Virus record (IMG/VR): IMGVR_UViG_3300040786_000061
DNA: 64,000 nt
Reading direction: 5' to 3' (one strand)
Source: a virus
Part shown: positions 251 to 53,351 of the stretch, in pieces
How the letters are laid out: every line of letters begins with the position of its first letter
How positions within the stretch are numbered: the first letter of the stretch is position 1
Notes under the pieces: model-generated
What the model was told of the DNA's origin: nothing
The model's database searches: none
The model's input: the letters and a program-made list of their open reading frames with translations, nothing else
Position numbers and translations under genes: made by a program

Positions 251-590
251 TTATTTTTTTAATAGTTTATTTATTTTAAAATGTCTTCGATAATTTTCGT
301 TAAATGCGTTGTTTTTAATTATTAAAATAAATAATTCAGCATTATTAGTAATTTTATATTCATCTATTTTATTTTTTATTAATTTTAACAAAAGTAATTA
401 TTTTTACCTTCACAAAATCTGTATATTATATAGAAATTAATATAGCGATAAATGAATATAAACTTTCGGTATGTAGTCCGTCTCGATTCGATTGTACATT
501 TGATTGTATCTCTTTACTAGTTTCTTTTGGTATATCATAAAATGAGTGATTCCAACCAATTTATATAATTGATTTGAATTTAGTACCATA
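251..590 (-). CDS. hypothetical protein with C-terminal RxxKIxxLL tail
   Basis: Hand translation of the minus strand ends ...ENYRRHFKINKLLKK*; frameshifted, start approximate. Confidence 0.45.
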
Positions 591-646
591 ATTTAAATTT
601 CTACTTCTTTTTTGATATATAAAATAATTCCTCCTGTGTAGATGTC

Positions 647-1278
647 TTATTTTAAAAGCAGATCGGCAGCATTTGATGCGGCGAAACTCATTGGCTTACC
701 CCAAACTCTAAATCCAAGACCTCTTAACCAAGGAACATAACTTCTATATGCAATATAAGACTTATTTCTGTTAGAACTACCTGGAAATAGTTAAAATCTA
801 TGTGCAAATCAACTAATTTGAAATCCATTTTATCATCACCGGTAAGTATTAAATTCTTCATAACATCATCTTCTAAATGCCTCTCAACATGTTCATATTC
901 ACCTATAGATTTAAGTAAGTGATATTTATATCTCTTTCTTTCTAAATCAGTTAAATCTATTCTTTTATAAAATTTTGATAATTCATCATTAACATAAACA
1001 CCAACATCATGTAGTATTGTGCTTCTTTATAAAGTCTGGATTGTGTATCTCTAATTTTAGCACAAGACTCTCTAAAGAAAACAACATGAGCACCTTTTTT
1101 AATATCAGTATTATATAACATTATAGTTATTGCATGGGTTGTTTTCTACGCATTTGTACAGAGTCACAACCAATTGTAATAGTTGCTGTTGGATCTTTTT
1201 CTAAAAGTTTTTTAAGTACTCTATTATATCTGGTATCATTTCTCCACCAAATTTTTTAAACATGTTTTTATAAATCAT
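647..1278 (-). CDS. YkuK/DUF458-family RNase H-like protein (frameshifted)
   Basis: Stitched translation has ITIGCDS, 'SRLYKEA', 'DLHIDFN' and C-terminal 'KPMSFAASNAADLLLK', matching the YkuK motif order (GxDS...HxD...KP...AAS.xAD). Confidence 0.7.
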
Positions 1279-1529
1279 TCTATTATTCTTTTATTTATTC
1301 TTAATATCGATTTTTGTACTATATCTGGTGGGAAAACTATAAATTCATCATCGCAAGTTAAATCAAATCCTGCATTTCCGTTATAAAACTTTTTGATATG
1401 TTTATAACATTATGATAAACTTCTTCGGAGACTATTGTTTTCTACCCTCAAACACACCAAGTTCATTAATAATCACCATTTGAATTTCTATCTCCATCAA
1501 TTATATATAATAATATAAGTTTGTTTAGT

Positions 1530-1837
1530 TTAATTTAATAATTGTTTAATTTTTAAATCTCTCTCATCTACAACCGAAGGTAATCAATATAAATAATAGA
1601 ATCTCTATAAAAATATCCAATTTTTATTGTTGGTTTCTTTTTATCTGAATCATACACAAAGTTAAACTTTTTTGTAATATAATTATTAACGACTTGCAAT
1701 CTCAAAATGGTGTCAATTGAATACTCAGATAAATCAATTTCATAATACTCAGATAACCTCTATTTTGTATGGTTTTATCATATGACTTTATAAATTCACC
1801 ATCATTTATACTAATATTCATTCTTAATTCAATCATG
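1530..1837 (-). CDS. hypothetical protein with C-terminal RDxKI tail
   Basis: Starts MIELRMNIS, ends VDERDLKIKQLLN*. Confidence 0.55.
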
Positions 1838-1848
1838 TATCTATATTT

Positions 1849-1875
1849 AAAAGGGTATCTATTAGATACCCTTTT
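1849..1875. terminator. intrinsic terminator
   Basis: AAAAGGGTATCT-ATT-AGATACCCTTTT perfect hairpin just downstream of the MoxR gene. Confidence 0.8.
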
Positions 1876-1888
1876 GATTACTAAACTA

Positions 1889-3017
1889 CTATTTAGCAGT
1901 TGGTTTGTTTATCTTCTTGATAGTTTTCAATAGGTCAGAAAATTCAAGTAAAAACTTTTCAATTTTGGGTTACCCACATCTGCAATATTATCTAAGATGT
2001 AAAGTAAGTATCCAGTCTTTTCATCATCACCTACTGTCTTTACGAATTTAACTGCATTTGCAATTTGCTTGTCAGTAAGAGTTGTGATATCAATCTCTTT
2101 CAAACTTTGAAGCAACTCAGAGTTTTTATCACGATTGTACTTCTCAAGGTCTTTCTTAACACCATCATAGTTATTAAGAACATCATTGATGTTGATATTT
2201 AACATATCATCACAGTATTGAACAAACTTCATCCCTGAGTTTCCAATATAACCTGATACAACTTCTCTCAATAAGGCAAGAACTCACGAGGTGATGCGTT
2301 TTCACCGTAGTTACAGATGATAAACTCTGATAACATAGTCCAAGAACGTGGTGTTGCATATCCCTTACAATCATCTGACTTCTTATACATTTGCTCAGGG
2401 TGTGTCTTAATATAAGAAGTAATCATTGGGTGACAATTTTCTTCTGCATAATCTCCTAACCACTCTTGAACATCTAATGTGTGATTGATATGTATCAAAC
2501 GGTTGTTCAATGCGCTATCAAATTCTTCAACATCTGTTCCATCTTCATCACCTAAGTTACCAGAAGACATCATAAGTACATTATCATTAAACTTAAATGC
2601 AGTTCCAATTTCTCTCTAACAAGATTTGAAGTGCCGCATTACGAACTTGTTGACTTGCTCTATTCAACTCTTCAAAGTGAATAATAGTTGGTCGTTTATT
2701 TGCTTCAACTGCCCAACGAGGCACAACGAAATCCAAACATTTAACCATTTCACCATCCATATCAATTTCTGACAAACTTGGGTATAAACCAACATCAGTT
2801 TCATCTACCATCGACAAACGAATATCTGAATATGCAAATCCATTTTATCTGCGATAGAACGACCAATTGCAGACTTAGCAACACCTGGCTTAGAAGTGAT
2901 ATTAAGAACACCGTATTTAGCCCACATAACGGAAAAATACTTTCTTTCTTTTGCAGTTAGTTTAACTAAATTCTCTAACATTTCGCTCGGTAACTGTTTT
3001 GACTTTTTCTCTGACAT
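1889..3017 (-). CDS. MoxR/AAA_5-type AAA+ ATPase (one gene split into 4 ORF fragments by indels)
   Basis: Walker A SKPGVAKS, Walker B IIHFEELNRA, 'NAALQILLER', 'SSGN', 'SALNNRL', 'ATPRSW'. Confidence 0.88.
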
Positions 3018-4085: not shown

Positions 4086-4734
4086 CCATATCAATACGTT
4101 TATTGCATTTTTTTATCATCCAACAAGTTTTTTTTCGATTCTTTGAAGTTACTTTTAGTTTCATCTGATAAGTTAAACCTATCTACTTTTGTGTAAATAA
4201 TTTTTCTTCCACCCCAAGTACTATAATCATAAGTCTTTTAGTTTTAAAGAAGTTCAAAGTACAACTATTAATTTTTAAGTAAGCAGTGAAATACTCAATA
4301 CTATTATCAACTTCATTTAGAAAGTATTCTCTTCTCTTTTAGTAAATTACCAAACTTACAATTGTCTAACCCAATCTCTTTGAACTTTCTTAGTATATCA
4401 TGTTTTTTACTATTTTCAATTGTCCATGATGGATTTTTGCTAAAACATCATCACTTTCTACATACTTTTTTATAAATAGAAATAAATGAAATCATATTAG
4501 TATATTCATCACTTTCATCTAAAAGTACTGTTAGTTGCATATCTCTTTCTTTCTGTTTCTGTATTCCGGTAACAAATTCTTTTAAGTCAACTACTTGATA
4601 ATTCATATACAAGTACTGGATTATTTGAATATCCACTGTTAAAATTGTTAAATTTTTAATTATTTTTTCTTCGGTATAGGCTTTACCATCATAGAGATAT
4701 ATCTTACTCATTACTATATTTTTAACAATATAAC

Positions 4735-4762: not shown

Positions 4763-4763
4763 A

Positions 4764-8559: not shown

Positions 8560-8941
8560 TATATATGATTCTGAAAATTACCATTAGTATCATTTATGCG
8601 TTTAAATTGTACTTTCATTTCTTTATACTTAATCTTAACTTTTCAATACAATATTTTATTTCTTCGTAAAATTCAGCAATATCTTTTGCATTTTCTATAA
8701 ATTTATTTATATTATTATCAGATCTGATGCTAGGTTCAGTTATTGACATTTCAATTGAGTAATGTGGACTATCTATGAAATCTTCTACAAATACACCCTC
8801 TTCACCTTCTCCCATTCTATCATAAAATTCAATAAAGCAATCTTTGATATAATCTTTAATAATTTTATCATTATATTGTTTTTTTTTAAGTAGTTTCTCA
8901 TTTTCTTCAAAACCTTCGTTACACCTTTTTAAATGTTTCAT
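8560..8941 (-). CDS. leader-tagged family A protein (MKHLK..NE...YIKDCFIEF...FY.EI...IEK)
   Basis: Same motif blocks as the 59-63 kb array members. Confidence 0.7.
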
Positions 8942-13019: not shown

Positions 13020-13778
13020 CTTTTATATTGATTTATATAACTTATTCACACTTGATGTTTTATAAAGTTACCAATATCTCCAATTTCTATATCATCACCA
13101 TATTTAAGCCAAGGAAAGTCAAGAGAATTTAAATTTTCTATAAATAAATCTTTATTTTTATATCTGAATATGCCATAGATAATCAATTGGTACATCTGAA
13201 AATAATTTAACTAAAAGTTTTTTTAAGTTAACTCCAGACTCTCTACCAATAAATCCAAAATCATATATTATAATCGAAATCATTATATGTATCTATCTCA
13301 GTAAAGTATAAAACCCTTCTTCATTTACTTTATATCTATATAGATATTTTCACCTGCAAATTCATATTATCCTATAGGTGCTATCTAGGTAGTCTGTATC
13401 CATTGACTTATTTAGGTATTCTATAGTTGCTTCTCTACATTCAGCATCAACAGGTATAAAGAAGTTTCTATTCTTAGTACACCATCACCATGATTTTCAA
13501 GTTCTCCTATATTATCCATAAACCAGTAATCGTCAATAAATAGTTTAAGATGATAATTTTCTCGTAAATCTGAGTTACCTGCTAGGAAAGTACCATACTT
13601 GGCATATAAATTTATATCACTTTCCATTTTTCTTATATTATTATCTTCTCTAACTTTGTTACTATATTCGCCTAATTTACGTGATCTATTAAGATGTCCA
13701 ATTTCCGCTAATTTATTAGAGGCACTTTTATAAGTAGATGGATATAATTCTTCGTTGAACTTTTTTTAAATGTTTCAT
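13020..13778 (-). CDS. leader-tagged family C protein
   Basis: MKHLKKFNEELYPSTYKSASNKLAEIGHLNRS... Confidence 0.6.
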
Positions 13779-13779
13779 T

Positions 13780-14502
13780 TTAGTTTTGATATAATTTATT
13801 TAGAGAAATGCTATTTATAAATTTAGCAACATCATCTAATGAGAAGCCAAAGTCTGATGATATTTCAGTTTCTATTATTGAGTTATTTATACTTTCATAT
13901 AATGATCCATATAAATCGGTATGATCGGGATATTCTTTACTAGTAAACAAACTTATTAAAAGTTTTTTGAAATTATAGGCAGTTCTTCTATCCACTATTT
14001 CCACTAAATCATCAGAATTATAAATATTTACATCTTTAATATAACTAGCGTATTTATTTGTACCAATATTTATTTTTATTTCCCATGCATTTTCTAAATA
14101 ATCACTCTCATAAATATTTTTGTTTTATCATAGTTTAACAAGGTTTCATCAGTCTTTATAAGAAACACATTTAAATTCATATTAAAGTTACTATTCTCTG
14201 TTATATTAGTATTTAGAATTTATCTCTATCAAAGATTATCATAATATGATAATCTTCTTATTTCGACCCTTTTTATTCTGAATTTGAACTTTCCGAAACG
14301 AGTATTTATCTATCAAAGATTGCCATTTTTTAAATTCTTTATCTTTCCTTGTTTCTTCGTCCTTTGCAATTTCTATTTCACGAACCTCAGCACCTTTTCA
14401 TCAAATCGTTATACCTCTTAGGATGTCTAGTACTACCTAAACCATCTGCTGCACTATAATAAGTATCGACTTCAGTTCATTAAATTTTCTAATATGTTTC
14501 AT
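13780..14502 (-). CDS. leader-tagged family C protein (tandem paralog)
   Basis: MKHIRKFNELKSDTYYSAADGL..TRHPKR...; shares the TY.SA...L...H..R block with the downstream gene. Confidence 0.6.
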
Positions 14503-14530
14503 AAATCTATATAAAAATAATATATAGATT

Positions 14531-15390
14531 ATGAAAATATATAACAATATTCAGAGTCTTGACTTTTATAAATACTAAAATATTAATACTATCTATCTTA
14601 CTAATATTATTATCTATTTGCGGATACAAGTCAATAACATCATCATTAGATAGAAATAGTTACTTGGTAGAACAAGTGGTTATAAATGATGTAAAGCAGT
14701 TAAAATAGCATCAATTAATTATCAAATAACTAAGAAAAATAATGAGATTCTATCAAACTGCTTGAATAGAGAAGAAAAGTATAATACACTTATAAAGAAA
14801 CATGTCTGTTATTATAAAACTAAAGAATGAACTTAAAATAGATAGTTTAAGTTCCAATAGAATTGATTCTTTTTGCAGAGAAATCTATTGTTTTTTAAAA
14901 AAATTGCAAATTCGATGTTCATAGGGTCGATGTGACTGAAGTATTAAAGTCAGATACAATAAGAGTTGTTACAAAGAGTACCACACAAGGACTTTTAGAA
15001 CTAAAGTAGAGTATAATACAATTACACGAAATTATTCTACTTTAAATAAAAAATTATTTAAAGATGTTTCTAATAAGACAAATTTAAAAAACTCATTAGA
15101 ACTAAATAGGTTAATAAAAGAAAATAATGAGTTAAACCTAAATATCTATTTAATAACAAATAAATATTCAATTGATATGTTTAATAAAAAATTTATTTGA
15201 ATACAGGAATATAACAAGTAAGATACACGATAATCTAATTAATTATCTTATAGTAACAACAATAATAATGTTAGCATCCGGACTAGTTATATACCTATTA
15301 CTATCAGATATATTAAAAAGAAAAAGTCAGAATCAAGATATCGTCAAATGATTTCAATGATGATTGAAAATAATGATAAAAAATATGAAA
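14531..15390 (+). CDS. membrane-anchored coiled-coil protein(s), one or two genes
   Basis: N-terminal hydrophobic stretch ILKILILSILLILLSICG, a coiled-coil middle and a C-terminal TM-like IIMLASGLVIYLLL; heavily frameshifted. Confidence 0.4.
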
Positions 15391-17606: not shown

Positions 17607-19039
17607 TTATTCATTCGATTCAAGAACGATTTGTTTTACTTTTCCGTTTGTGCGTTTGATTGGACACTTAACACCAACTGATATAATCAACAACTTACCT
17701 TTTAGTTTAGAACAATCTAAATTGTCTGTATAACCATCAGTTAAGAAAACAGAGTTACAATTGTTGTGGTGCTCTACAATGTAATCAATCATTGTGCAAG
17801 TTCCACCAAGACCTTTAATGGGAATACTTTCAAGTTTTCTTGCACTCTTAATCTTTTGAACCCAATTCACTTGTGTATCAGATTCCATAAAGTTAATCTC
17901 AATATCATTACGATATACATAAGATAGAACTCTTTCAAATGTACCTTGACCACCCATAGAACCAGAAGTATCAAGTCCAACATTAATCATAGTCTTAACT
18001 TTACGATTACCTTTAAGACCAGAGATTTGTCGTCTATTTGGCTTAACAATCGTTTTTGCTTAGTTGTTCCAAAAAATCATATTAGAGACTGCTCTTTTAA
18101 TCTCTTTAAGATAATCTTTACGTTTTTACGTAGTTTATTAAGAGTAGTTTCTATACTACCAGCAGAAAGTCCTCTTGCAGAAAGTCTATCCATAACGTCT
18201 CTAACCATCGCTTCTCTCATTTCATCAGGAACAGAATCACCGATGTGCTTATCAAGATACTCACCAGTACCATTCTCTAAATCATCTAAAATTTGTTCAG
18301 TCGACCAAGTATCTATAGTTCCCTCACCTTTTGGACTTTTACCATAAGGACCATAAGATGGTTTTCCTGACGAGTCTTTACCTGGTTCGTTACCACTTCC
18401 CTCACAAGAGTCACAAGGCTCACCTTCGCCTTGACCTTCGCCTTGACCTTCGCCTTGACCCTTCGCCTTTTCTTCACTTTTCCTTTACCTTCGCCTTTTC
18501 TTCTTCTTTCTTACCAGAACCACCACAAGACTTACATTTTGATTTCTCTTTTGTCTTTTTTATGCTCTTCTTTTTCTCGTTCATCCACTCATACAACTCT
18601 TCAAAGATAAGTTTACCTGTATATTCTTTAGGTACAAAAGTGCCATATTTTTACCATCTTTCGATTTAGGTATCTCAATAAAAGTATGTGAAATATCTTC
18701 CCATATAACATGGTTGATAATCATATCTTGTACGATGTTAGAAAGTTTGTGGTCATATTGACCTGTAACTGTTCTTTGTGGGTGATTAAAAGTAAGTGAA
18801 AATCCTCATGTAAAATGATGAAGTTTACTTCTTTTTGTGATAAGTCTTCTAAAACTTAGGAGAGTAGAAAAGTTCATACCTTTGGAGTAACGTTTACTGC
18901 ACAAGTTCCGATTGATTCTGATTCGACAAAACTAATATGTAGATTAAATTCTCCATAATAAGGCATATTAACTTTCGTATCAATGAGCATTGCTTGAATA
19001 CCATCAGTAATTTTCGTGTAAATCTTTTTTAACTATCAT
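17607..19039 (-). CDS. DUF2201-type metallopeptidase (HExxH) plus VWA-like domain protein, typical MoxR partner
   Basis: N-terminal 'ILHEDFHLLFNHP', 'NIVQDMIIN'; C-terminal MIDAS 'LDTSGSM', 'GLGGT', 'FLTDGY'. Confidence 0.85.
18423..18470 (-). repeat. 12-bp tandem repeat encoding a GEGQ low-complexity linker
   Basis: (CCTTCGCCTTGA)x3 and variants inside the DUF2201 gene. Confidence 0.8.
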
Positions 19040-20843: not shown

Positions 20844-22696
20844 TTATTTCATTATTTCATCAATTTTCAAATCTCTTATCACATCATCAGGTAATTTACC
20901 ATCTTCCATTTGAATTACTGTTGTTCCTTCTGGTAAAATTAATGATACCTCAACAGAATCTTCAAATTGGTGAGCAATATAATCGCTTAAATCAAAATCA
21001 GTACTAAAATCACCATCCTCTGTCTTTACAAAAACACCAATTGTCCCTTTGAAATTAGATAAGAATAGACAGTCAATAGCATTAAAAGTATCCTCCCATT
21101 ATCAGTTTGACTTGCTAACCAACTCTTATATTCATCAAGTTCCATAATAGTCAAAACCATCAGATTCGGCATTTAATTTTTTGAATTTTATTACCAATAT
21201 AAACATCATATGCGGTATAATCATCCGTTATTTGTAAATCACAATCATCATCTACCATAGTACCAACAATAACTAAGTTAGTTTCTTTGTCAAAAGTTTT
21301 TAAATCTTTACATCCATTATAATCTCTATCAAACTCCTGAACTGCACTCTCTTCTTCATATTCAGGTGTTCTATATTCTGGTCCAGATAAGTCAACAACA
21401 TTTGAATTTCCTTGTGATAAATGAATATCAAGACTCTCTTTAAGGTTGTTCATTTCACCAGACAAATCTTTTCTCGAATATAAGAATTTGACCTGACTCT
21501 CTATCAAATTGAGGATCTTGTTCAAATCCTTTTCTCAAAACTTTCCAACAAGTTGGTGCCAAGTTAAATCACCTCTATATTCAAATATGTTTTCTTTTGA
21601 AGAGTTTGTATTCATTGTAAATTTACCAAGAACATCAATACTTAATATTTTTTCTGAGATTTCATCACTAAGTGTGAAATCTTTTAAATCATCTTTTAGC
21701 AACTTTAATTTTATAGAATGAACTTGTTAGATGTTCAAAGAGAACATCTTTTAAGACCCATTAAATCTGCAATTTTATCAGCAATTGATTTTGTTGAATC
21801 ATCAATACCTGTTTCTACTTTTGTTCTTCTGATACAAAAAATACATAACCATTAGGCTCATCAATAGGAGATAATGATTCGAGTCTTGATTGTAAAATAC
21901 TAAGTTTAGAATTAACTTCACTCACTCTTGCCTCAGTTTGTTTAATCTCATTATTATACTTTCTAATATCTTTTCAGAATCTTCAATACGTGATTTTAAC
22001 TCAACAATCTTATCTTCGTTCATTTTCTTAAAAACTTCTTCTAAGTGTGTTTTAGTTGTTGTTTCTTTATCATCTACGGTTGTGATACTTCTTTCTTGTT
22101 CATCTTCAACTTCTAAGTCACTAACTTCTGACTCTTCATCTAATGAATCTCCAAACAAACTATCAAGAAAATCCATTCCTTTATCAGAAAGTTTTCAGGT
22201 TCTGCGAATAAAGATCTAAATTTATCAATTGGTTTTAAATTATCTACTTCAAGATAACATCTAAGTCCATCAATATCATTAAATTCAAGATTTGCGACAA
22301 TAAACTTTGTGTATAACCAGTAACATCATTTGAGTCGATGTCGTCAATTAGTCTTTGTCTCATTGCTTTGTCTGATATATTCGTATCGACTTCTTCAAAG
22401 TCAATTGTTCCTTCATCACAAATTGTTATTTTAAATATAACTCCTTCTAACATACCTGATAGTTTATCACCTTTTAGAAAAGCAATATCTCTAATGAAAC
22501 GAACTCTCGCTCCATTAACACCAGATATAAAATTTAAAAATTTTCTTTTAGGTTTGAACTCACCAAGGTTTACTTTAACCTCTTCTACTAAATCTGAAAC
22601 TACCATACCTTCATCAGTAGCAGTTACTTTACCGATACCGAGATTTCTTGCCATTTCATTAATTGAATCCATCATTCCTTTACCTTCTTTACTCAT
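20844..22696 (-). CDS. large acidic/coiled-coil hypothetical protein with C-terminal RDLKIDEIM tail
   Basis: ORFs 22244-22696, 21922-22176 and 21160-21525 join across indels; ends DDVIRDLKIDEIMK*. Confidence 0.6.
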
Positions 22697-22739: not shown

Positions 22740-23146
22740 CTACTTTTCAGTAATAATATCTATCTTCATATCTCTAACCACATCTTTACTTAATGGTTCT
22801 ATAAGAGATTACCATATTTATCGCAGATATTTTAGTGTCAATATATTTATAACCTGTTTCTTTAATTAATTTTTTTAATAACCTTATTATTTACTAATTT
22901 ATCATCTTGTAGATTATAAATTTCTTGAATATAATACTCATTTTCACAACGTAAATTATTGCTTACAGTAGAGTTATAATCATCTTCTTCCACATGTTTA
23001 TCCAAACATAATGTTAGCAATAAGTAAAGTTCTCGATCACTTAGTTTCATCATTTTATCAATTTGACTACTTACGTTGAAATTTTCATAAATCTCAACAA
23101 ATAAATCAGTGACTGCTATTTTTTTTTGTAAATTTTCTTCTTCCAT
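22740..23146 (-). CDS. hypothetical protein with C-terminal RDMKIDII tail
   Basis: MEEENLQKK... ends KDVVRDMKIDIITEK*. Confidence 0.6.
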
Positions 23147-23202: not shown

Positions 23203-23491
23203 TATATACCTAATTTTTTGTAGTTTATATTCACGATAATCCTGTTTAGATACAGTACCTAACTCATATGCTCTTTGAAAGAATACTTCAAATATAAGTT
23301 CTTGGTTCATCTCTTTGCAACGTTAGCTCTGTTTATTGCCTTCCACTCGTCTTTATAAGACGAGCCTGAGTCTGCGACAATCTAACTATTTTATCCTCAT
23401 CACCTAAACTCTTAGTTATAATATCATTAACTCTTTTAAAGTTCTTTTGATACTCTGCCTTTGTTTGTCCGTTATATTGACCTTTATACAT
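23203..23491 (-). CDS. hypothetical protein with C-terminal REYKL tail
   Basis: MYKGQYNGQTKAEYQKN... DYREYKLQK(LGI*). Confidence 0.55.
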
Positions 23492-23539: not shown

Positions 23540-24338
23540 CTAAGATAAAATATTATTAATTCTATCATTTCTGCTATATGTTAAGTCCTTGTCCATTTTA
23601 TATAAAATGAATTATCATAACTAACAACCGATGATAAACTATCTGTTAGTATCTTACTTAGTTTATATTTTTATACTATAAATTTTATTATAATTATCAT
23701 ATATATAATCCAATATTATAAATTCAACACTATTATCCTCTTTCATACAAACAACATCACCTATTCTATGACTTAATAATACTATTATTGCCTTTTCATC
23801 AAAGCCATAAATCAATTTAAAGTATGCAATAGTATCATCTAAATATTTTTTATACAAGAAAACTGAAGATGCGTATCCAGATAAATTATACTCAAAACGA
23901 GTAAATTCTTTATCATATAATATATGATTGGTTGTTTTTTTGACTTTATTACATTCTCATTGAATATAAATTCCTTTAATACCTCTTCATCATAATATCT
24001 ATTACTAATAACTGATTCTGATATAAATTTAAATATATTATAAAATTCATCAATAAATTCACTTTGTATAGAAAATAAAGTAGATATCTCAATCTCAGGC
24101 TCTTTTATTTTATCTGTAGTATTTTTACTTGCATAATCTCTTGCATAATCTTTATATACAAATCATCAGGATAATAGTCGTTGTTAAAACTGTTTGATCT
24201 AGGTATATTATAAAACGCAAGTGCTGTATAAGGTGAATGATTCTCATAACAAGGTCTAACAAAAAACAAATACTTATTCGTATCATTTTCTAATAGTTTG
24301 TTAAGTTCGTTAATATCGGTATCAGTAAATCTATTCAT
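23540..24338 (-). CDS. hypothetical protein with C-terminal RNDRINNIL tail
   Basis: Fragments 24105-24338 and 23663-23857; ends YSRNDRINNILS*. Confidence 0.5.
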
Positions 24339-24592
24339 TTAGTATATTATTTATTTTTTATCTCTTGCTTCTTCTATTGTCATGAAATACATTTCAAATT
24401 CTTTTTATTTGTTGGAGCATAGTAACTAAGTGTCTCTGTTTCTATATAAATAAATATATAGAAGCCTCGATATCACTATTTACTGGCTTAGTTTCATATA
24501 TCTTATTCTTTTCCCATTTCACTCTTTTATTCCAATACTCAGGAAGTTGATTGGCTTCATAAAACAGGTTCTCTTACAATATACTTTTTCAT
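24331..24592 (-). CDS. small hypothetical protein with C-terminal RDKKINNIL tail
   Basis: ...KKEFEMYFMTIEEARDKKINNILNE*; same architecture as 30309-30560. Confidence 0.55.
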
Positions 24593-26053: not shown

Positions 26054-26650
26054 ATGAAATATATAATGAGATTCAACGAGTCTAAAAAAGAAAGATACTT
26101 TCTATCACATGAAGGTGTGAAGATAAATATGATTGTATTACTGGATCAGATATAAAAGATAAGTGGGATATTTCTAATGAAAGTGATAAAGGTATAACCT
26201 TATTAGATTATATCGAAGATGCTGAGATAGGTGATAGATGGATATTAGGAACAAGTAACATAACTCGTATTCAAAAGTTTAGTTCAAATATAAGTTATGC
26301 AAATATTAAAAAAATTTCAGAAGAATATTTAATATATCTAACCGATGTAGGATTTACTTTAAATATAATAGAACCTATATTTCGATTTACGGATAATCCT
26401 AGCTATCTTATAGAGATATCTAAAGCAGGAGTATTAAGTGAATTTAATTGGGAAGATATTAAATATGACTTTATACCTTTTATAGAATTTATATCCAAAA
26501 CTATATAATAGATAGTAATATAGTTTTATTTTAGGTAATCGTTCTTTTCTAAGAGCGTTTTAATTGATGATATATTAAATGATAATATTAGAGTTGATTA
26601 TCTATTAACAACAATAAAGATCAGAGTAAGATAGATTATACATCTAATAG
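26054..26650 (+). CDS. leader-tagged family B protein
   Basis: MKYIMRFNE...; 'FSEEYLIYLTDVGF', 'FNWEDIKYDFIPF'. Confidence 0.6.
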
Positions 26651-27152
26651 TATTAAATTATAATCTCTTCTAATTCTCTTAATACTCAGCCAATTTTTTA
26701 TCCTGTTTTCAACAAGTGTGTGTAAATTACCTCTGATTTATTTTTAATATTATAAAAATCTCCAATATTATCGTTAAATAATTCAATAATATCAGAAGGC
26801 GTACAAAGCCTAAGATGTTTATTATTTAATAAAATAATAAAGTATAAAATTTCTTTAATTTCGTTATAAGTTTTTCATCAACTCTCCATTTTGATATCCA
26901 ATCTCTTGCTATACTATCATTGGTTTTATCTGCACTAGGTGGAATAAATATTATAGAGTAATAGGATAAATCTTTAGATTTAGGTATTACACCAATATAT
27001 TTTCCCACTTTTCCATAATATAAGTTGGATCGATATCTATTAAATCAACATCCATATTGTTATGTAAGTTAAAAGAGAATCTTATTAAATTGTCTAATTG
27101 TGTTTTCATAACAACAAATATACAATTTTAATATATAAAAATAAAAGTTTTA

Positions 27153-28994: not shown

Positions 28995-30308
28995 TAATAT
29001 ACGTTATTTGAGAAACAAAAGATAAATCAATACCTCTGTTATTAATAATTTTTTTAATTCGCTCTTATTCAGTTTTAATGAAGGACAAGATACATTAAAA
29101 CTGGTGTTAATGCACTAACATTACCTTCATCTTCACCAACAGGTGTGAAGAATACATAGTCATTTTCTGACACATCAAACTCTTTCATTATTAAATTCAA
29201 CTTATCTATTAGTTGTTTAATAGATAATGGTTTTAAATTTTCTGACATTATTATATTATATATATTTTATTATCATGATGTTACATGTTTTAGATATAAC
29301 CAAGATTTCATTTTCTAAATGAAATCTCTTCTTCTTCGATAATTTCCTCTATGACATCTTCTTCTAACTCTTCTTTGGTACCAAGTAGTTCGTTTATCTT
29401 AGAATCACGTCTTTTTGCAATAATCTTAGCATTTCTTTCATCTTCTGTATCATCGCCCCAAAGAAGAATATCATAATAACCCATTATTCAGGTTTTTTGT
29501 TTGATTCATAATAATACCCTCTTGTAATTTCATTTCCTTTATATATCATAGGTATTGTGCTGACACCAACATTTACAGAATTTTCAATTGATAACTTATC
29601 TTTCAACATCATCAACTTAAAATTTGTTTAATACCAAAATTCGGAAACTTAAATCTATTATCTAAAATCCAATTAAGATCTATAATTCTTTTATTACAAT
29701 GGTTTATATAGTAGATATAATATCTAGTTCTAGAAGACTTTATCTCACACAATTCAGTAGCAAGTATTGTATCAACATCAACATCTTTGAAGTCTCTCAA
29801 TAGAACTGCTCTAAATTTTATATCTTTTGGAATACATTTTCAACAATATCTCTTAAACCTAATCCATCATCGAAAAGTTTAATTATATTTCTATCCAATA
29901 TAGACATCACGGTATCTTTTGTCATTTATTATTTATTTTATACAAATATAGTAAAATTTAGATATTATTATACTGTTTGTGTAAAATATAATTCGATTTT
30001 ACTACAAATAATCATGTATTTTTCTGCCAAAATAGGATTATTCAGTCCTATTTTATTTATTGTTTTTCTGGTGTGTTTGGGTATCTATACATATTCCCTA
30101 CACATTTGGAAACCATCTTTATAGTAAATTGAAATATCACCTGTTACTCGATAAATGCCTACACTATTTTCATTTGGATAGAAATAAATCAAAAATCATT
30201 TTCCTTCATTATGGGATAACTATGCTCATATCTATAAACTCCCTTACGAACTATTGTTTTACCGAAATCATCAATACCTTTTACTTTGGTTTGCTATACT
30301 CATTTTAA

Positions 30309-30560
30309 TTAATTTAGAATAATATTTATTTTATCTTCTCTTATTTTAGTTATATCATCAAATCTAGTATAAAATTTATCTTTTGACATTGATACAGCAC
30401 TTGAAGATATATTTACAACATAATACACTAATCCATGTTCTTCTATTACATCATAATCATAATAAATACCTTCTACAAATTCTAAATACTTTCTTTGATT
30501 TGGAAATAAATCTGGACCCAAATAAGGTGTAGTACTTGTTAACTTACATTTACACTTCAT
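30309..30560 (-). CDS. small hypothetical protein with C-terminal REDKINIIL tail
   Basis: Intact 83-aa ORF ending IREDKINIILN*. Confidence 0.7.
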   Translation of the reverse strand: MKCKCKLTSTTPYLGPDLFPNQRKYLEFVEGIYYDYDVIEEHGLVYYVVNISSSAVSMSKDKFYTRFDDITKIREDKINIILN

Positions 30561-33320: not shown

Positions 33321-34212
33321 ACATTTAGAGTAAATTATTTTGTACCTTTAATTTATGAGAAATCGAGCATTTAGAATATACAAAGAAGACTTAAAAGTAA
33401 TTAAAAGAATTAAATCTATTGAAAAGGAAAATACTATTATGGATATTTAGACATTAATAATATTTCACATTCAAACGCAATATTAAGTGATTATATTGGA
33501 TCATGTATAAATTTTAAATATAAATCACTATCGACTAAACCATCTAGTTCAAAATTTAAATCTAAATATTCATCTAACCGTAATACACAGTGTTGGTGGA
33601 CCAGAACTATTAATACTAGAGTAGGTCGTAAAGTAGAAACTTCATTACTAATAAAAGAGCATTATGCGTCACTTAATTCCTGATAGTTCAGAGAACTGGA
33701 TAATAAAAAAAACATGTTGATGTATAAAAGTATGTTAACTTACCTGTTTGTTTTATACAGAATGATATCGTATATATATTTTTAGATAATAAAATACCGA
33801 ACCAAATAATAAAACTAACTAAACATCTAATATTAAAAGAAATTAAATTTTTACCACGCCAGAATATTCTATTCCTAACACAATAATAGATAATAATAAA
33901 GTAATAAATCACTACTTATACTCATATGTAAATAAACATTTTTTTATAGGATTTAGAAAAATAGAATTTGATTTAATAAAAACTTATTAGATTGGTGTAA
34001 AAGAAGATTGTTACATACTTATAAAAGAAAATTATGATATAATTTCAGAAAAAGTTATGAGAAAAAATACTGATTTTTATACTAATAAAATTTACTACAA
34101 ATATGATGAGGAAATAAGAGACTTTTCTACATTATATAGAGAGATACAAATTAATTATATTATTGCATAAAACAAATTAACTATTATCTATATAAAATAA
34201 AAAATATATATA

Positions 34213-34543
34213 ATGTTAAATCCATTAAACTCAAACTCAACAGGCAGTACAGTACAAAATATAAGAGCAAACTCAACAAGTAATATTGTTATTGGAAATA
34301 ATACTAAAAGTATTTATAGTATTGCTGGCAGAATATAATATTTTAGGAGAGTCAGTCTCAGTTGCTGGTTATAAAGACATTAATCTTGCAGTTATTATAG
34401 CACAAATAAATATATTAGGAAAGATTACTATGATGAGTTAATTAAACAAGGGTTACATTCTCTGAAGAGATAGAAAGTATTTTAAAAGAAAATTTAAAGA
34501 GATAGAAAGAGATAGAAAGATAGATTTGATTACAAAAGATTAG
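34213..34543 (+). CDS. hypothetical protein with C-terminal RDRKIDLI tail
   Basis: MLNPLNSNSTG... IERDRKIDLITKD*. Confidence 0.55.
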
Positions 34544-36568: not shown

Positions 36569-36867
36569 TTATATTGTGAATGGTATCTAAAAATAATAGA
36601 AATAATGATGCAATTAATCTAAATGATAGATTATCTGAGATAAATAGTAGAATTAAAAATCCAATTAGAATAGATATTGTTGGTAAGTCCTATAATCCAG
36701 TATCTGGTTTGATTGAATATAAACTATCTAATGGTACTTATATCCCACTATTAGGTGGTGTTTCTAAAATTTCAGATGAGCAACTTGCCTATGTATTTGA
36801 TATAGAATTTATAAAAGAAATAGATATCCAATTATACAGAGATTTAAAAATAGATAAAATTATATAA
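36569..36867 (+). CDS. hypothetical protein with C-terminal RDLKIDKII tail
   Basis: ORF 36580-36867 ends YRDLKIDKII*. Confidence 0.6.
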
Positions 36868-37422: not shown

Positions 37423-37964
37423 ATGACAGCAGAAGATAAATTAACAAAGATGAAGTGGTATGTCGTTCGTACACAAAACCAGAGAGAAAAATCAGTATCA
37501 GAGAAGATAATCAAAGAAGGAGAAATAGGCGAACTAGTTGGTAAAGTAGGACAAGTTCTTGTTCCTTTAGAAAGACATTCTATCTAAAGATAATAAAAGT
37601 ACAAAGAGAAACAATATTGTTTCCTGGTTATATTTTATGCAAACAAGTTCACTAGGAGAATTGAAATATTACTTAAAAGGTATTAAGGGTACATCAGGAT
37701 TTTAACTGAGAGAAATGGTGAGATACAATCACCTCAATTAGAAATAGATAGAATGATTGGTAGCATGTAGAATCAATGAGTAAAGTTGCATATGATACTT
37801 ATATTGTTGGTGAAGAAGTTACTATCATAGATGGTCCATTCTCAACTATGAACGCCACAGTTGAATCTATTAAAGACATAAAAGTAACTCTAGCAGTATC
37901 TATATTCGGTAGAAAGACACCTGTTACATTAGAGATACATCAAATCGATAAGAAACATGGATAA
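37423..37964 (+). CDS. nusG: transcription elongation/antitermination factor NusG
   Basis: 'KWYVVRT...E', 'QVLVP', 'FPGYIF', KOW 'GEEVTIIDGPF', 'VSIFGRKTPV'. Confidence 0.92.
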
Positions 37965-38139
37965 TCAACGAAAATTGATTAGTAAAATAAACGAAGCTTC
38001 AAATTTAATACATAAAACATCACGCAGAGGATATGGTAACAACTATATCGTTAGTAAGTTAGTATATGATATTATATTTGGAGAAAGTATAAATACTGTT
38101 CGAATTAGGAAAATTAATAAATTATGGAACAGAAGTTAA
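37957..38139 (+). CDS. small protein with C-terminal RIRKINKL tail
   Basis: Intact 60-aa ORF. Confidence 0.6.
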   Translation: MDNQRKLISKINEASNLIHKTSRRGYGNNYIVSKLVYDIIFGESINTVRIRKINKLWNRS

Positions 38140-38293
38140 TAGATATTGAAGAAAAAAGTTAAGACTATTAAAGGCACTTAAAGACTGGCCTTCAAGAGAA
38201 TCAAATGTAACTATTGATTTACCATATTTATATAAGTCACTTGGAATTAGTCCAATAAATGAGATTAGAAAAATAAGATAGATAGAATAATAA

Positions 38294-38703: not shown

Positions 38704-39170
38704 TGAGTATATAAACAATCCTAGAAAAAATGCACCAATTCTTTTCAGGATAGATGGATATAATATTGATAATATTAGTTTATTTATAAATAATTGTAAG
38801 ATGGCATTAATGATGGAATAACTGCATCATTTGATTTGAAACTTTGGATGAATGATTTTCTGAATAAGTATTATAAATATATATCATATAACTATTTGTC
38901 CTAGATTTGAGATTAATGGTATTTTATTTTCATGTAAAACCAAATTAGAAGAAGAAGAACTTGATGAATTCTTTTACTATAGGCATCGAAACTTAGCACT
39001 TTTATATGTTATAAAAAAAATATCTTTAGAAACATTTAAGATAATTTATGAAATAAGATACATAGATATAACAAGCAAAGAAGATGAAAGAGAATTTAAG
39101 TTACTTGATATATTAGAAGAGAACAATAGTTCTCTTTTTTTTTAATATAAACGAAACAATAAACTAAATT

Positions 39171-41266: not shown

Positions 41267-42516
41267 ATGAAACTAACTAGTTATAAAGAATATATTTTAG
41301 AGAAAGTTATCTACGACATGATATTAGAATCAAAGATTGTATTTTCTAAGAATTTTCTAGGAATTTTAAGTAAGATGGGAAGTAATGAGGTCGCAAAAGA
41401 ACTCGTAAAATTGTATAATAAAGATATCGACGGTGTGCAACATAACTATATCGATACTACTGATGAAAAAGACTCCGTTAGTTTTACTCAGATAGAAAAG
41501 CTATAGAACTCAATAAAGATTATGTAGAAAAATGGAAAGTAATTGCAGATAGTAGATATCTAACTCATAGTGATAAAAACGATAGAATATTTGAGAGACT
41601 TGGATACGAAAAGCGGATAGAGAAGAATGGCATCCTCAAGTAGGTACGGTAGGTATTATTATGAAAGAGACTATTGGTAGTCACGGTAAAATATACGTAC
41701 TATTTGAAAGTGATGGTAAAACAAGTGTATTAAACAAATTAGCATTAGAGAATATTGGTGAAGATAGTAGAGCATGGTCAACATCAAGAAATAATATAAA
41801 GATAGGTAGATTGGTTAGATCTATATTAAAAGTAAGTGGTGTAAGTTTTATCGAAAAGGATATTGAGACTTTGTTAATAAATATAAGGCGACATTTGACT
41901 TTTCCAAAAATATGATTAAGCAATTTGATATCGTAAAAGGAGATGATATTAAATATTGGTATAAAGGTAATAATTATGAAGGAAATGGAGGTACTTTAAA
42001 TGGATCTTGTATGAAAACTCTGATAGTGAGTTATTTGACTTATATTCTATGAATTCTAATGTCTCACTTGTTATACTTTATGATGATAATGGTTCTATAG
42101 ATGATAATGAAAATACACATCTGATAAAATTAAAGGACGTGCGATACTTTGGAAAACAGATAAAGGTATGTTTATGGATAGAATATACACCGCACATGAT
42201 TCTGATTTAAATCTATTCAAAGAGTTTGCAACTAAATCAAATTTTTGGTTTAAAACAGAGCAAGATATGGAAGTTGATACTCAGATTACAAATGGCACAG
42301 AGACTAAAAGTTAGAACTTACAGTAAGTTTAGATACTACGGATTTCTATAGATATCCATATTGTGATACAATAGCATATTTAAATAAAAGTAATAATATT
42401 TCAAACAGTGATGATGATTATGAACTTGAACTAAAAACACCGATGGTAGTGCAATGGGTGATGAAGATGATGGGTATTATGACGGTTATGATGAAGACTA
42501 TTCAGATGAAGATTAA
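41267..42516 (+). CDS. leader-tagged conserved phage protein (GSCM/GRA.LW/MDRIY/YPY.DT family)
   Basis: MKLTSYKEYILE...; 'IKIGRLV', 'GDDIKYWY', 'NGSCM', 'KGRAILW', 'FMDRIYT', 'YPYCDT'; acidic tail. Confidence 0.65.
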
Positions 42517-42556: not shown

Positions 42557-44420
<1,864 letters not shown>

Positions 44421-45108: not shown

Positions 45109-45357
45109 TTAAAATTCTAACAATAACACTAATTTTAAGTCACGTACTAAAGAACTCTTAATATTCATTTCATCAAAGTATTCAATAATTTTAATAATTT
45201 CTTTTTTAAAATTATCTTCTGTGGGTTCTATTGTATACTTTCCATCAGTAAAAGCCTTTTCGATATCTCTTAATTTAGATGCCATTTCATAATCTTGTAC
45301 TTGTATACTATCTTCTTTTAACTCAACTATTTTCCTAATAATTTTATTCTGTATCAT
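45109..45357 (-). CDS. UVR (UvrB/C-like) motif protein with C-terminal RDLKL tail
   Basis: 'KEDSIQVQDYEMASKLRDIEK'; ends VRDLKLVLLLEF*. Confidence 0.6.
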   Translation of the reverse strand: MIQNKIIRKIVELKEDSIQVQDYEMASKLRDIEKAFTDGKYTIEPTEDNFKKEIIKIIEYFDEMNIKSSLVRDLKLVLLLEF

Positions 45358-45359
45358 AA

Positions 45360-45704
45360 TTATATTGATTCATCAAGGTTTAATAAGTCTTTTAACTTTT
45401 GGTCTCTCTTTTCTACTAAAGTTGTGTTTGAGCCAGTCTCCCATTTTATTTTAAAATCTTCAATAAATACAATACCTTCTTCTTTTGTTTTAAATTCTTT
45501 ACCACTTCGAATAGCACTTGTAGAATCTAAATCTGAGTAAGAATTACATATCTCACCAGTCAGTTTACTTCCATATGCACTTTTAGATAAGAAACTACAA
45601 AATATCCAAAGTACTTTTTTCAGTATCGAAGACTCCATAAACACCTAACTCTGTTGAGCCAAAATCATTAATCTTGGTAGAGTACAACATTCTATTTTTT
45701 TCAT
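45360..45704 (-). CDS. hypothetical protein with C-terminal RDQKLKDLL tail
   Basis: Ends VEKRDQKLKDLLNLDESI*. Confidence 0.6.
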
Positions 45705-47018: not shown

Positions 47019-47166
47019 ATTTTATATTAAAATTAAACTTTTGTGTTTAGAATTTCATCAATCTTTCTATCTCTGCGTTCTACTTTTTTTTTTGTATATC
47101 GTTTCTATATCTTTCAATAAACTTAGTATACAATTCGATATGTTTTATTTCATTCTCTTCTCTCAT

Positions 47167-50255: not shown

Positions 50256-50297
50256 ATTTCTACAATATTTTATAAAGTATATATTAAAATATTATAA

Positions 50298-50326
50298 AAA
50301 AAAAACCGAGAATATCTCGGTTTTTT
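50298..50326. terminator. intrinsic terminator after dnaJ
   Basis: AAAAAACCGAGA-ATA-TCTCGGTTTTTT. Confidence 0.8.
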
Positions 50327-51375
50327 ATTTAAATTTAAAGTTTATCGATTTTTTTAAATCTTCGAGTATTCTTTTTCTTCGCTATTTATATTATTAGGTA
50401 TTTTAACCTTTATATTTACAAATAGATCACCAAGACCTAAGTTAATATCAGGCACTCCTTTCCCAGATATTCTGATAACTTTCCCGTGTTCAGTTCCTGG
50501 TGCAATATTTACAACTTCTAATCCACGAGGGTTCTAACGAAACATTAGATCAATTATTGCATCGATAACAGATATCTCTTTCTCTACTATTAAACTACCA
50601 CCATCCCTTTTAAAATATTCTTCTTTAATCTCGTCGATTAATATGTGTAAGTCACCTGATATTCCATTTAATACTGAATTTCCATATCCTTGCATAGTTA
50701 ACTTCATTCCACTACCAACACCTGCAGGTATATTAATATCAATCAGTTCTTCTTTCACAACGGTACCGGATCCTCTACAGACACCACATTTATTAAGTAT
50801 TTGTCTACCATTTCCATTACATTCACCACAATTAACGGCTTGTCTTACTTGACCAAATGGAGTATTCTGTAATATAATTCTTTGTCCTTTTCCCTTACAA
50901 CCATTACACTCTCTTACATCACTTCCTCCTTTACCATCACAAGATTTACAAGAATCATTTTTTTATTATACTTTACTTTTTTTAGCACAACCAGTTATAA
51001 TTTCTTCTATATTTAATGATAGTCTTATATTTAAGTCTCCTCCTTTTTGTTGCCTTCTTTGTTGACCTCCAAATTGCTGACCGCCTCCAAAATATCTCAA
51101 ATTGTGAGAATATATCGTCCATGTTGAATCCAAATCCTTGTCCACCTCCAAATGGATTACCAGAAGATTTACCATCTGTTGATCCAAAACGATCATAATT
51201 ACTCTTTTATCATTGTCTGATAGAACATCATAAGCACTTGAAATCTCCTTAAATTTTCTTCTGCATTAGAATCTTTATTTACATCAGGTGATATTCTTAG
51301 ATAATTTCTATATGCTTTTTTTAGTTCATCTTGTGTTGCATTTCTATCAACCCCTAATACGTTATATAAATCCAT
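50325..51375 (-). CDS. dnaJ: molecular chaperone DnaJ (class A)
   Basis: J-domain 'LYNVLGV...KKAYR...HPD', G/F region, CxxCxGxG repeats, 'IPAGV', 'PGTEHG...I.GKG'. Confidence 0.95.
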
Positions 51376-51379
51376 AATT

Positions 51380-51781
51380 TAATTTAATATTTTATTTAAT
51401 TTGTCTTCTCTATTCTTGAAATAATTTTATTTTTTTATCGCATCTACTATAAAACTTTCTATATGCAAAAGAGCCTTCCGGTGCATTTTTTACTCGTTTC
51501 TATATCCTCTCAACTTTAACTCACCTTCTATATAACTAATATACTTACCTTTAGCATTTACTTGTAAGTAATCAACATTTTCTATGATGAATCCAATACC
51601 AATATCTACATTTACATTACCTTTATAGAATATTTCATCAACGTTAATATAAACTATACTATCTTTATTATCTCTAATAAAGTCTAAATAGAATAAATAT
51701 AAAGTTTCATTATCATATTAGCCGAATCTTTATATTTTTATATAAAAATCCCAAAATATGAATTTACAAATAATCTTTCAT
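51380..51781 (-). CDS. hypothetical protein with C-terminal REDKLNKIL tail
   Basis: Ends KNREDKLNKILN*. Confidence 0.5.
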
Positions 51782-52575
51782 TTTTGTATAACTTCTTTAA
51801 TAGTTTCTTTTATTTTCTAAAAGTATCTTATCCTTTCTATGTTAGAAGACTCTTTATTATCAATATATCCACTATCATATAAACCTACTATAATATTTGA
51901 ATAAAGAGAGTTAAAACTTAAGCGATTTATATCTTCTAGTAAAATTTCCTTATAATCTTCATTTACCCAGCAAAACCACTCCGTATGTAATCTTTATCTT
52001 CTAGGTTAGCAATCTTATCTTTATACTTCTCTATTAATTTCATTTATTTCGAAAATTTATATTACTAATTATCAAATTCTTATCTACTAACTTCTAATTG
52101 TTAAATCTCTTATCTCCTGCTCTATATTACCATTAAAGTTATATGCTCTGTCAAATAAGTTGGCAACATGATTATCAACTATTAATTGTATAGTCTCTAT
52201 TGTTCTATCAAGATATATGAATGGTCTTAAAGAGTTTTAGAATCTTGTATCATAACCACAAATACGTTAAATACTCATCTATATCAAAATAAGAAAGAAT
52301 AATCTTAATTTACTACCTTTTAATATTGTAGGTGGATCTTGATAAACTTTAATATAAAGTCTTCGTATAGAAGGTAATATTATATCCAATATATCATCTT
52401 CATCTTCATATAATTTACCTAATAACTCATCACTATCAAATAAATGTAACTTTTATCTAATACATAATCTAATATATCCTTAAAGTCAGATGAATTAACA
52501 ACACCATTACATAAAGCATCTGTTAATTCATCTCTATAACTTCTATTTTGTAAATATCAAATATGGACAAACCCA

Positions 52576-53019
52576 TTATTTACCTAAGACTATTTTAGGA
52601 TACCTAAAAATTTTACCATTAATAGAATATCCTTTACTAGCAACATCAATTATTTTAGACTCACCAATATCTAAAACACTTATAACCTCATGCTCATCTG
52701 CATCATATATCTCAGTCTGTATGCTTTCTATACCCTGTCCTTTAAGAAAATTCTCTAACTTACTGGCAATTAGTGACACACCTTTCTTAGCATCTTCATT
52801 CTCAATTGTTTTAAATGCAATTGAAATATCACTATCCATATCAAGAATAGATGATAACATCTTAGATTTAGTCTCTAAACTAAATCTCTTTCTGTTTGTT
52901 TATTCTTTTCTTATAATTTTCAAACTCCGCATAAAGTCTCAAGTACTTATCTTCGGATTCGTTTAATCTTTCTTCGATGGTTAATTCTATATTTTCTATG
53001 TTTTCTTTTCTTCTTCCAT
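52576..53019 (-). CDS. grpE: nucleotide exchange factor GrpE
   Basis: 'YLRLYAEFENYK', 'YDADEHEVIS', 'KGYSINGKIFRYPKIV'. Confidence 0.9.
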
Positions 53020-53351
53020 TAGTTTAATATTATATTTAGTTTATAATCTCTTATATCATTTTCGTGTATAAAGATACTGACGTGTTTTACTCAATTGACC
53101 ATTATACGTATAAGCGACTATCAATAAAACCAGGTACTGTATTTGTATTGATACTATATACATCTACTATTTTACTTTGAAAGATTCCAAAATTGATTTA
53201 TATAGTATTAAGTCTTTTTCTGGTATGTCCTTTATATATCATCAATAATTAAATTTAAGTAATTTCTTTACGTGATTTGAGCTATAAAACTCTGTTATAA
53301 CACCTTATCTTCTATCTGATGTACTTCTAATTTTTCTAATAAAATTTTCAT
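53020..53351 (-). CDS. hypothetical protein with C-terminal RDYKLNIIL tail
   Basis: Ends HENDIRDYKLNIILN*. Confidence 0.5.

Follow-up and report, generated by a model that had tools for sequence, protein, structure and literature searches.

A nine-residue C-terminal tag on many unrelated proteins of Mahaphage-type genomes: distribution, conservation and a possible docking function

The tag in the window and in related genomes

The window analysed here is a stretch of 64,000 nucleotides from the IMG/VR virus record IMGVR_UViG_3300040786_000061, in which a number of otherwise unrelated reading frames end in a short peptide of the type R-[DE]-x-K-[IL]-x-x-[IL]-[IL], referred to below as the tag (its Arg being position 0, and the proteins that bear it being carriers). 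This window (27.5% G+C, no tRNA genes found) is an indel-ridden piece of a Mahaphage-type megaphage. Its open reading frames (ORFs) are interrupted by indels, and conserved genes match their relatives piecewise (DnaK in 4-5 pieces, topoisomerase II in 7-9); an alternative genetic code was rejected as the cause of the breaks, since read-through of TAG or of TGA lifts the long-frame content equally. A cleaner assembly of the window was sought and none was found; a 99%-identical protein is present on a 130-kb contig. The closest relatives of the dnaK region are LR745206, LR756502, LR756504 and LR756501, and most of the window is syntenic with about 440-530 kb of LR745206. The Mahaphage clade of Al-Shayeb et al. 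is described as including genomes of 634, 642, 636 and 735 kb, with hosts predicted among the Bacteroidetes (PMC7162821); the four relatives, LR756501 having 735 kb, appear to be genomes of that clade.

A position weight matrix for the tag was built from LR745206 only and used to scan the window in six frames with a score threshold of at least 9. Twenty hits were obtained, 19 of which lie within 20 residues of a stop codon, against 2.7 ± 1.4 (maximum 6) in 100 order-3 Markov shuffles; a regular expression gave 18 near-stop matches, against 3.4 ± 1.7 in shuffles (maximum 9, n=100). The C-terminal enrichment claimed by the original prediction, which had been made from the letters of the window, is thus recovered by both tests. 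Sites that it had listed account for 16 of the 19 near-stop matrix hits, and the remaining three (39152+, 45590+ and 51905+), which begin 1-2 codons past a stop, are probably the chance share. Twenty of its 22 sites can be read in one frame (that at ~26645 being weak); those at ~24331 and ~38270 are readable only if the frame shifts by one base within a poly-A run, which fits assembly indels. The core of the proposed consensus stood, with N and K as further residues at position +1 and G and F at position +8, and the carrier lengths of ~45 to ~600 aa are unreliable because the ORFs of the window are broken. The sites are listed in Table 1.

Table 1. Tag sites and tagged genes of the window (positions in the 64,000-nucleotide stretch; scores are those of the LR745206 matrix)
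Feature	Positions	Strand	Remarks
Tag, stop 251-253	260..286	-	Score 13.7; LR756502 orthologue with similar tail
Tag, stop 1530-1532	1536..1562	-	Score 18.3
Internal copy, 31 residues from stop	4520..4546	-	Score 8.8
Large carrier, indel-broken, tag 20850-20876	20844..22588	-	Score 18.5; tagged orthologues; no Pfam hit
Tag, stop 22740-22742	22749..22775	-	Score 10.0; tagged orthologues
Tag, tail probably frame-shifted	23209..23235	-	Score 9.6; tagged orthologues
Tag, stop 23540-23542	23546..23572	-	Score 17.6; tagged orthologue
Tag across one-base frame change	24340..24365	-	One-base change in poly-A run
Weak tag variant, in frame	26642..26668	-	Tagged orthologue in LR756502
Internal copy, then acidic tail	29383..29409	-	Score 20.9
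Intact 83-aa carrier, tag 30315-30341	30309..30560	-	Predicted small beta-barrel and low-confidence terminal helix
Tag	34138..34164	+	Score 15.3; tagged orthologues
Tag	34508..34534	+	Score 14.5; tagged orthologues
Tag directly before stop	36838..36864	+	Score 19.5; tagged orthologue
60-aa mini-gene, major capsid protein piece and tag 38101-38127	37957..38139	+	Capsid hidden Markov model E 1.6e-4; tag score 10.1
Tag across one-base frame change	38267..38292	+	Frame change in poly-A run
Tag, 18 residues from stop	39089..39115	+	Score 8.1
Tag	45118..45144	-	Score 11.0; tagged homologue
Tag	45381..45407	-	Score 21.0; tagged homologues
Tag	47048..47074	-	Score 23.7
Tag, just upstream of dnaJ	51385..51411	-	Score 20.3
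Probable extra tag, missed by the original prediction, shortened by stop or indel	52084..52110	-	Score 7.6; orthologues end in full tag
Tag, just upstream of grpE	53025..53051	-	Score 17.4

For genome-wide counts, a simple greedy ORF picker called genes on one 20-kb stretch at a time (denominators therefore include some false ORFs, and genes at the borders are lost), and a terminal tag was defined by a matrix score of at least 9. Terminal tags were found on 161 of 1044 called genes in LR745206, 149 of 1041 in LR756502 and 65 of 1009 in LR756504 (about 2 expected from shuffled tails), and on 124/1210 and 45/515 genes of two further IMG/VR records (G001 and G002), which amounts to 6-15% of called genes across the five related records (up to about one gene in seven). 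LR756501 has 2 tags in 1113 genes and LR756500 none in 414 (300 of 462 kb sampled). The DNA pattern of the tag stands at control level in Lak-C1 and four cultured relatives, which leaves no cultured model at hand.

Carriers are small (median length 101-109 aa) and, as originally claimed, otherwise unrelated: after removal of the tag, 161 carriers fell into 160 clusters and 124 into 118. They lack homology outside the motif, so that the tag is not part of one larger shared domain. Among the 100 longest of 177 LR745206 carriers, 95 had no Pfam hit, and a Pfam scan of 50 tag segments gave no family common to more than one. The large carrier of the window measures 622-731 aa in its relatives, again without a Pfam family, and the capsid piece of the 60-aa mini-gene covers positions 411-439 of the capsid profile. 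An ESM Atlas search with the window carrier 36580-36864 returned nothing. A PDB search with the tag profile returned five matches, none significant; the best (E 0.55, the catalytic loop of protein kinases) was put down to chance, because two dialects of the tag lack the Asp at +1.

Conservation is that of a peptide. With position 0 left free, Arg occupies it in 236 of 246 terminal matches of the closest relatives and Lys in none (1/111 in other genomes), and position +4 is Ile or Leu in 236/237. In 35 orthologue pairs of LR745206 and LR756502 (45% body identity), Arg0 was retained 35 times, with the same codon in 20 pairs, and 37 of 48 LR756502 homologues retained a terminal tag at threshold. 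The Arg codon AGA is used roughly as in each genome at large (265/353 vs 251 expected; in G001 51/124 vs 68 expected). The position of Arg0 peaks at 9-11 residues from the C-terminus (89 LR745206 matches), and 0-7 variable residues follow the motif. Genomes have their own dialects: +1 is acidic or Asn in LR745206, LR756502 and G002 and Lys in LR756504 and G001, the G001 form often having Phe +8. In the two closest complete genomes 18-25% of tags have Gly +8, and within the LR745206 group Lys or Arg at +1 pairs with an aromatic +8 (20/27 vs 15/335, p 6e-18), on very small proteins. Mean net charge of the tag region is +1.4 to +2.1, with 19-30% of the regions neutral or acidic.

For the intact 83-aa carrier, one model out of five shows a small beta-barrel that ends in a helix at residues 71-82, the predicted local distance difference test score (pLDDT) being below 50 for residues 74-83; fold searches with it gave weak SH3-like matches only, none with E <= 0.001. 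In such a helix the conserved positions 0, +3, +4, +7 and +8 would share one face. The tag also occurs inside proteins (23 copies in LR745206, 29 in LR756502, 8 in LR756504). In a UvsW-like helicase it is a 14-residue lineage-specific insertion, decayed in LR756502; in a DinG-like helicase it lies in a lineage-specific stretch and is kept in three genomes; further copies lie inside degenerate copies of the capsid protein. Internal copies indicate that the tag needs no free C-terminus. Membrane helices are predicted on 28 carriers (score of at least 10; carriers scoring at least 9 total 544), many with a single N-terminal helix followed by basic residues, and membrane proteins are less common among carriers than among other small proteins. 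A reader of the tag, that is, the protein to which it would bind, would therefore be cytoplasmic and take both soluble and membrane clients. The copies in helicase loops and the 28 membrane carriers together argue against capsid loading, a lipid anchor and a degron that needs a free C-terminus. A degron had been offered by the original prediction, and one of this last kind fits poorly; ssrA-type degrons have fixed terminal residues and a free carboxylate, unlike a motif trailed by variable residues and found internally.

Timing of expression, an N-terminal motif and a second tag

A different motif, of the type M-K-x-[LI]-K-x-[FY]-x-E, stands at the N-terminus of 31-60 proteins per genome (LR745206, LR756502, LR756504, LR756501, G001 and G002; in the window for instance at 8615-8941, 35224-35373 and 60589-60744) and is tied to a putative late promoter. 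It is probably a capsid-targeting sequence. The promoter candidate, TAATATATA, is enriched upstream of genes with the N-terminal motif and of large genes. Within 60 bases upstream it was found for 4/493 tagged genes, 65/183 genes with the N-terminal motif and 332/3287 other genes (<400 aa). In LR745206 and LR756502 tag and N-terminal motif are almost mutually exclusive, falling on the same protein 2 times vs 7.7 and 2 times vs 9.8 expected. The carriers are likely made early.

Short stand-alone pieces of capsid, protease/scaffold, portal, sheath and ClpC proteins were detected in every genome by profile search. Pieces of capsid and protease/scaffold, two families singled out after inspection of the list, make up 14/618 tagged vs 8/2884 untagged small proteins (odds ratio 8.3, p 2e-6), which, despite the ~8-fold enrichment, is about 2% of carriers. 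Capsid, scaffold, prohead protease and portal are reported as immune triggers (PMC13728456), which makes a decoy role plausible, but for a small minority of carriers. Mini-proteins resembling the ClpC middle domain or UVR motif were noted at L019:16085-16384, L053:919-1134 and L020:16859-17248, two of them tagged. Tag-rich genomes have DUF6576 modules joined to unrelated proteins, 1-5 of these in each genome (in the window at ~25419-25905 (-), with a module near 25481; also L013:15134-15496, L029:15574-16191 and others), and none was matched in LR756501; DUF6576 was set aside as a separate module.

The distance of LR756501 from LR745206 is like that of LR756504 and G001 (capsid 51-53% identity). 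Its proteins bear another sequence, DPYGEExW, present on 84 of them (loci L004, L101-L104 and L142-L172) and absent from the other six genomes compared. Counted back from the C-terminus, the start of the last copy lies at exactly 10 residues in 28 of these 84 proteins, at no more than 12 in 39, and at 30 or more in 42. Carriers of DPYGEExW include pieces of capsid, protease, scaffold, portal and sheath, and one resembles an LR745206 scaffold piece that bears the Arg tag. Six of 51 records have it, all on one branch (LR756501, G006, G007, G009, G024 and G025); none was found in the 86 kb of G008, which belongs to the same branch. There may be up to four copies per protein, often directly after the N-terminal motif; codon use varies between genomes and is strongly biased in LR756501 (TAC 72 vs 34 expected). 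DPYGEExW falls on proteins with the N-terminal motif more often than expected (6 vs 2.6), which, with its absence from G008, implies that the two tags are not fully equivalent. An Arg-tag remnant was recognised by eye in a capsid-like protein of LR756501, and a few true Arg tags occur in neighbouring branches. From an approximate tree, the Arg tag is probably ancestral and was replaced in the LR756501 lineage. A third C-terminal ending, approximately E-[GA]-x-K-[LM]-G-L-[LM], was seen at L393 of record G015 (e.g. 1762-2387 and 13587-15112) on several proteins, most of which also bear the N-terminal motif. When motifs were sought de novo around the capsid genes of other clades (20-kb loci), mostly orthologue signal was returned.

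Other genes of the window were recorded as follows. MoxR (1892-3017, -), a VWA-metallopeptidase (17610-19032, -), DnaK (42560-44402, -), DnaJ (50369-51372, -), GrpE (52579-53014, -) and a NusG-like antiterminator (37435-37955, +) are kept in relatives. An opposite-strand insertion (19159-20809, +), flanked by the VWA gene and the large tagged one, is shared by LR756502, is absent from the same place in LR745206 and looks like a gene of homing-endonuclease type. The gene at 41267-42436 (+) belongs to a set of large paralogues that have a repeated domain in common and match no Pfam family; other members are L028:15547, L009:10898, L035:3271, L012:677 and L025:16232, several with the N-terminal motif.

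Candidate readers and competing explanations

Candidates for the reader were sought by gene distribution. Seventy-five genes of LR745206 are common to LR756502, LR756504 and G001, and 11 of these have no BLAST hit in LR756501; after profile and tblastn searches the main survivors were ClpS, a J-domain-like protein, a probable small terminase and a membrane protein in which a winged-helix domain is predicted. The J-domain-like protein was rejected, as it is also found in the tag-free record G030. The original prediction had proposed a chaperone, an AAA+/VWA machine, a clamp or a membrane compartment as hub. Phage DnaK is not supported as a universal hub, nor are ClpC and ClpP, all three being absent from G001, which is 98% complete and has 124 tags. 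MoxR, VWA and the clamp are equally present in the sister LR756501, so that their distribution lends no support; M16 peptidase was discarded for the same reason, and M28 peptidases because they are absent from G001 and present in LR756501. The M28-like family (phrog_4191) has five paralogues in LR745206 (L015:2934, L016:6974, L018:16022, L024:6336 and L025:1118). No reader stood out when the LR756501 orthologues were screened for acid-to-basic shifts. ClpS was found in 21 of 51 records, including all five near-complete tag-rich ones and none of the six with DPYGEExW. Phage ClpS has been proposed to bring targets to host ClpAP (PMC7824862), and Gp53 of SPO1 is a phage adaptor for ClpC (PMC6873191). 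The phage ClpC-type ATPase (L026:3224-5329) has its AAA domain from residue 85 and is thus without the usual N-domain; ClpS and two ClpP genes are located away from it.

Were the tag a sliding-clamp-binding motif, it would gather early proteins on clamp-loaded phage DNA. This is unlikely, although it survives best among the alternatives. The phage clamp has the PCNA fold (pLDDT 87; Foldseek E 2e-9), the C-tail of the polymerase closes with an aliphatic-Phe pair at similar spacing in six genomes, the tag sub-type with Lys +1 and Phe +8 ends in the same way, and two helicases contain internal tag copies. The PIP box and the clamp-binding tails of T4 are likewise short terminal hydrophobic motifs on unrelated proteins, and the tag shares their hydrophobic +4, +7 and +8. 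However, the tag is mostly aliphatic, with an invariant Arg0 and Lys +3, whereas the polymerase tail, which alone among the usual clamp partners has part of the spacing, carries Arg at the matching place in three of six genomes and Lys +3 never. The clamp loader, an RNase H-like exonuclease and the late sigma factor end without a tag, clamp and polymerase tail persist in LR756501, and Gly +8 would delete a pocket residue. A predicted complex of phage clamp and tag scored 0.02 against a mark of 0.32, with controls not folded, and carries no weight either way.

It is less probable again that the reader is the winged-helix protein (L033:4817-5953 and L190:2895-4016), a phage-specific inner-membrane protein whose predicted cytoplasmic domain would anchor carriers in a membrane-bound phage centre. 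Its distribution agrees: of 33 records, eight gave a match (a weak and partial one in one case), every one of them tag-rich and both tag-bearing clades being represented, and none of seven complete named records without the tag did so. Its Atlas neighbours are virus-only clusters; this profile, however, depends on about one informative loss. Judged from an alignment, its C-terminal domain seems to be basic and suited to DNA binding, not acidic, and carriers with a membrane helix of their own would not need such an anchor.

Two further readings fare worse. Arg0 might be the residue that a modifying enzyme (e.g. an Arg ADP-ribosyltransferase) recognises or modifies, with the helix as recognition sequence; the near-total exclusion of Lys at position 0 and the invariant Tyr at the centre of DPYGEExW agree with this, but no such enzyme is among the genes common to tag-rich genomes and missing from LR756501, and the idea is very improbable. 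Slightly more so is a lipid-binding amphipathic helix like the membrane-targeting sequence of MinD. Terminal position, amphipathic pattern and mean positive charge would suit it, the helix of the tag being predicted with low confidence. In MinD-type helices, however, basic residues are interchangeable and the sequence is loose, while the strictness of Arg0 and of Ile/Leu at +4 suggests binding in a pocket of a protein, 19-30% of the tag regions are neutral or acidic, and 28 carriers already have membrane helices.

Capsid loading by a helix like that of the P22 scaffold is highly improbable: that helix is also C-terminal and binds coat through Arg293 and Lys296 (PMC9965877), at the same i, i+3 spacing as in the tag, but it belongs to one coat-binding protein, the scaffold, whereas the phage protease/scaffold has no tag end in six genomes (scores below zero) and carriers lack the late motif, avoid the N-terminal motif and include membrane proteins. 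Early expression alone is compatible with packaging, as in the internal proteins of T4. The capsid-targeting sequence (CTS) of T4 internal proteins IPI-III is similarly a portable ten-residue address peptide on divergent proteins; it is N-terminal (first ten residues), cut by the prohead protease and directs packaging (PMC9026906), in contrast to a tag that is C-terminal or internal and also found on membrane proteins. The CTS-like element of these phages would rather be their N-terminal motif. Equally poor is the reading of the motif as a DNA cassette or recombination boundary with a functionless peptide, for despite genome-specific dialects, residual codon bias (strong in DPYGEExW), fresh in-frame insertions and one decayed copy, conservation follows helical spacing and not a DNA block, Arg codons follow genome usage, and orthologues retain residues while codons change. 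DNA-level copying nevertheless probably spreads the tags.

By these comparisons the tag falls outside the CTS, PIP, ssrA, MinD and P22 scaffold classes. The closest working analogy for the explanation preferred below is the H-box helices (HBx, SV5-V and DCAFs on DDB1), in which a short helix, with an Arg and a Leu as its key residues, links unrelated binding modules to one machine (PMC3928422). These belong to a eukaryotic ubiquitin ligase with few carriers per virus, and no sequence relation is claimed. The tag resembles an AAA+ adaptor tether of this H-box-like kind in being a short predicted helix on unrelated proteins. The tail of SspB docks on ClpX. Clp adaptors such as SspB and SPO1 Gp53 on ClpC (PMC6873191) dock on an AAA+ protease and redirect it, as is proposed for the tag; they are single dedicated proteins, whereas the tag is nine residues on more than 100 proteins, with putative Clp docking. 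Full-text searches aimed at the tag, in a library with few subscription journals, showed no description of it, and no paper on DPYGEExW was found either; the passages covered of two huge-phage surveys make no mention of the tag.

A docking helix and its proposed partner

The tag is probably a docking helix for one cytoplasmic partner that is active before late transcription, and that partner would, with similar likelihood, present an acidic, Arg-specific groove and a tight Ile/Leu pocket. The docking helix suggested by the original prediction is therefore retained for its predicted helix, unrelated carriers and peptide-level conservation, without the hubs DnaK, ClpC and ClpP. In the proposed mechanism, the tag would dock many unrelated, likely early proteins on a single partner in the host cytoplasm, most likely a Clp-type AAA+ unfoldase-protease, and docking would deliver the carrier together with whatever its body has bound. 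Carrier bodies may be binders of host proteins, the capsid and protease fragments being putative baits for immune sensors. Terminal and internal sites, soluble and membrane clients, and a profit from decoy bodies make an AAA+ protease the simplest partner. Given one partner, its being a protease machine has somewhat less than an even chance, and the full reading, a docking helix for a shared hub that is likely an AAA+ protease, stays tentative.

Several observations weigh against it. The searches identified no partner of the tag, and phage ClpC, ClpP and DnaK are missing from G001. The pattern of ClpS depends on very few independent losses in the tree; G015 has ClpS with the tag pattern at control level (5 vs 7; 0/18 genes around the matches), and G013 and G022, both fragments, have a few real tags and no ClpS match. 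ClpS recognises N-terminal degrons and not C-terminal helices, so that the two may occur together without a functional link. Recognisable pieces of core proteins from any of 114 families are found in 16/618 tagged vs 35/2745 untagged small proteins, which does not support a general bait library. The split in timing is weaker at operon level, where the late motif stands upstream of 22/150, 11/139, 37/121 and 5/61 tagged genes, the contrast being notably weak in G001 (37/121). At +4 (Leu), +7 and +8 the codons contain more A/T than would be predicted from gene bodies or gene ends (for +7, ATA in 150/214 vs 106 expected), which suggests that tags also spread by copying of DNA. A protease tether inside the phage's own helicases also looks costly.

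More broadly, and with rather little probability as a whole, Mahaphages may run a counterpart of the F-box/H-box system, in which more than 100 small early binders, including capsid, protease, portal and sheath decoys, carry an interchangeable tag that hands defence proteins to a single degradation machine, lineages having swapped the tag (Arg helix vs DPYGEExW) with its reader.

In the largest phage genomes, small genes of no known function are the majority, and a tag on 6-15% of them gives a common handle. The second, unrelated tag at the same position in a sister lineage is a built-in control and indicates that such address systems are replaceable wholesale. A named hub would place more than 100 uncharacterised proteins per genome in one pathway, and, should it be a protease, these nine residues would also serve as a portable means of targeted degradation in Bacteroidetes.

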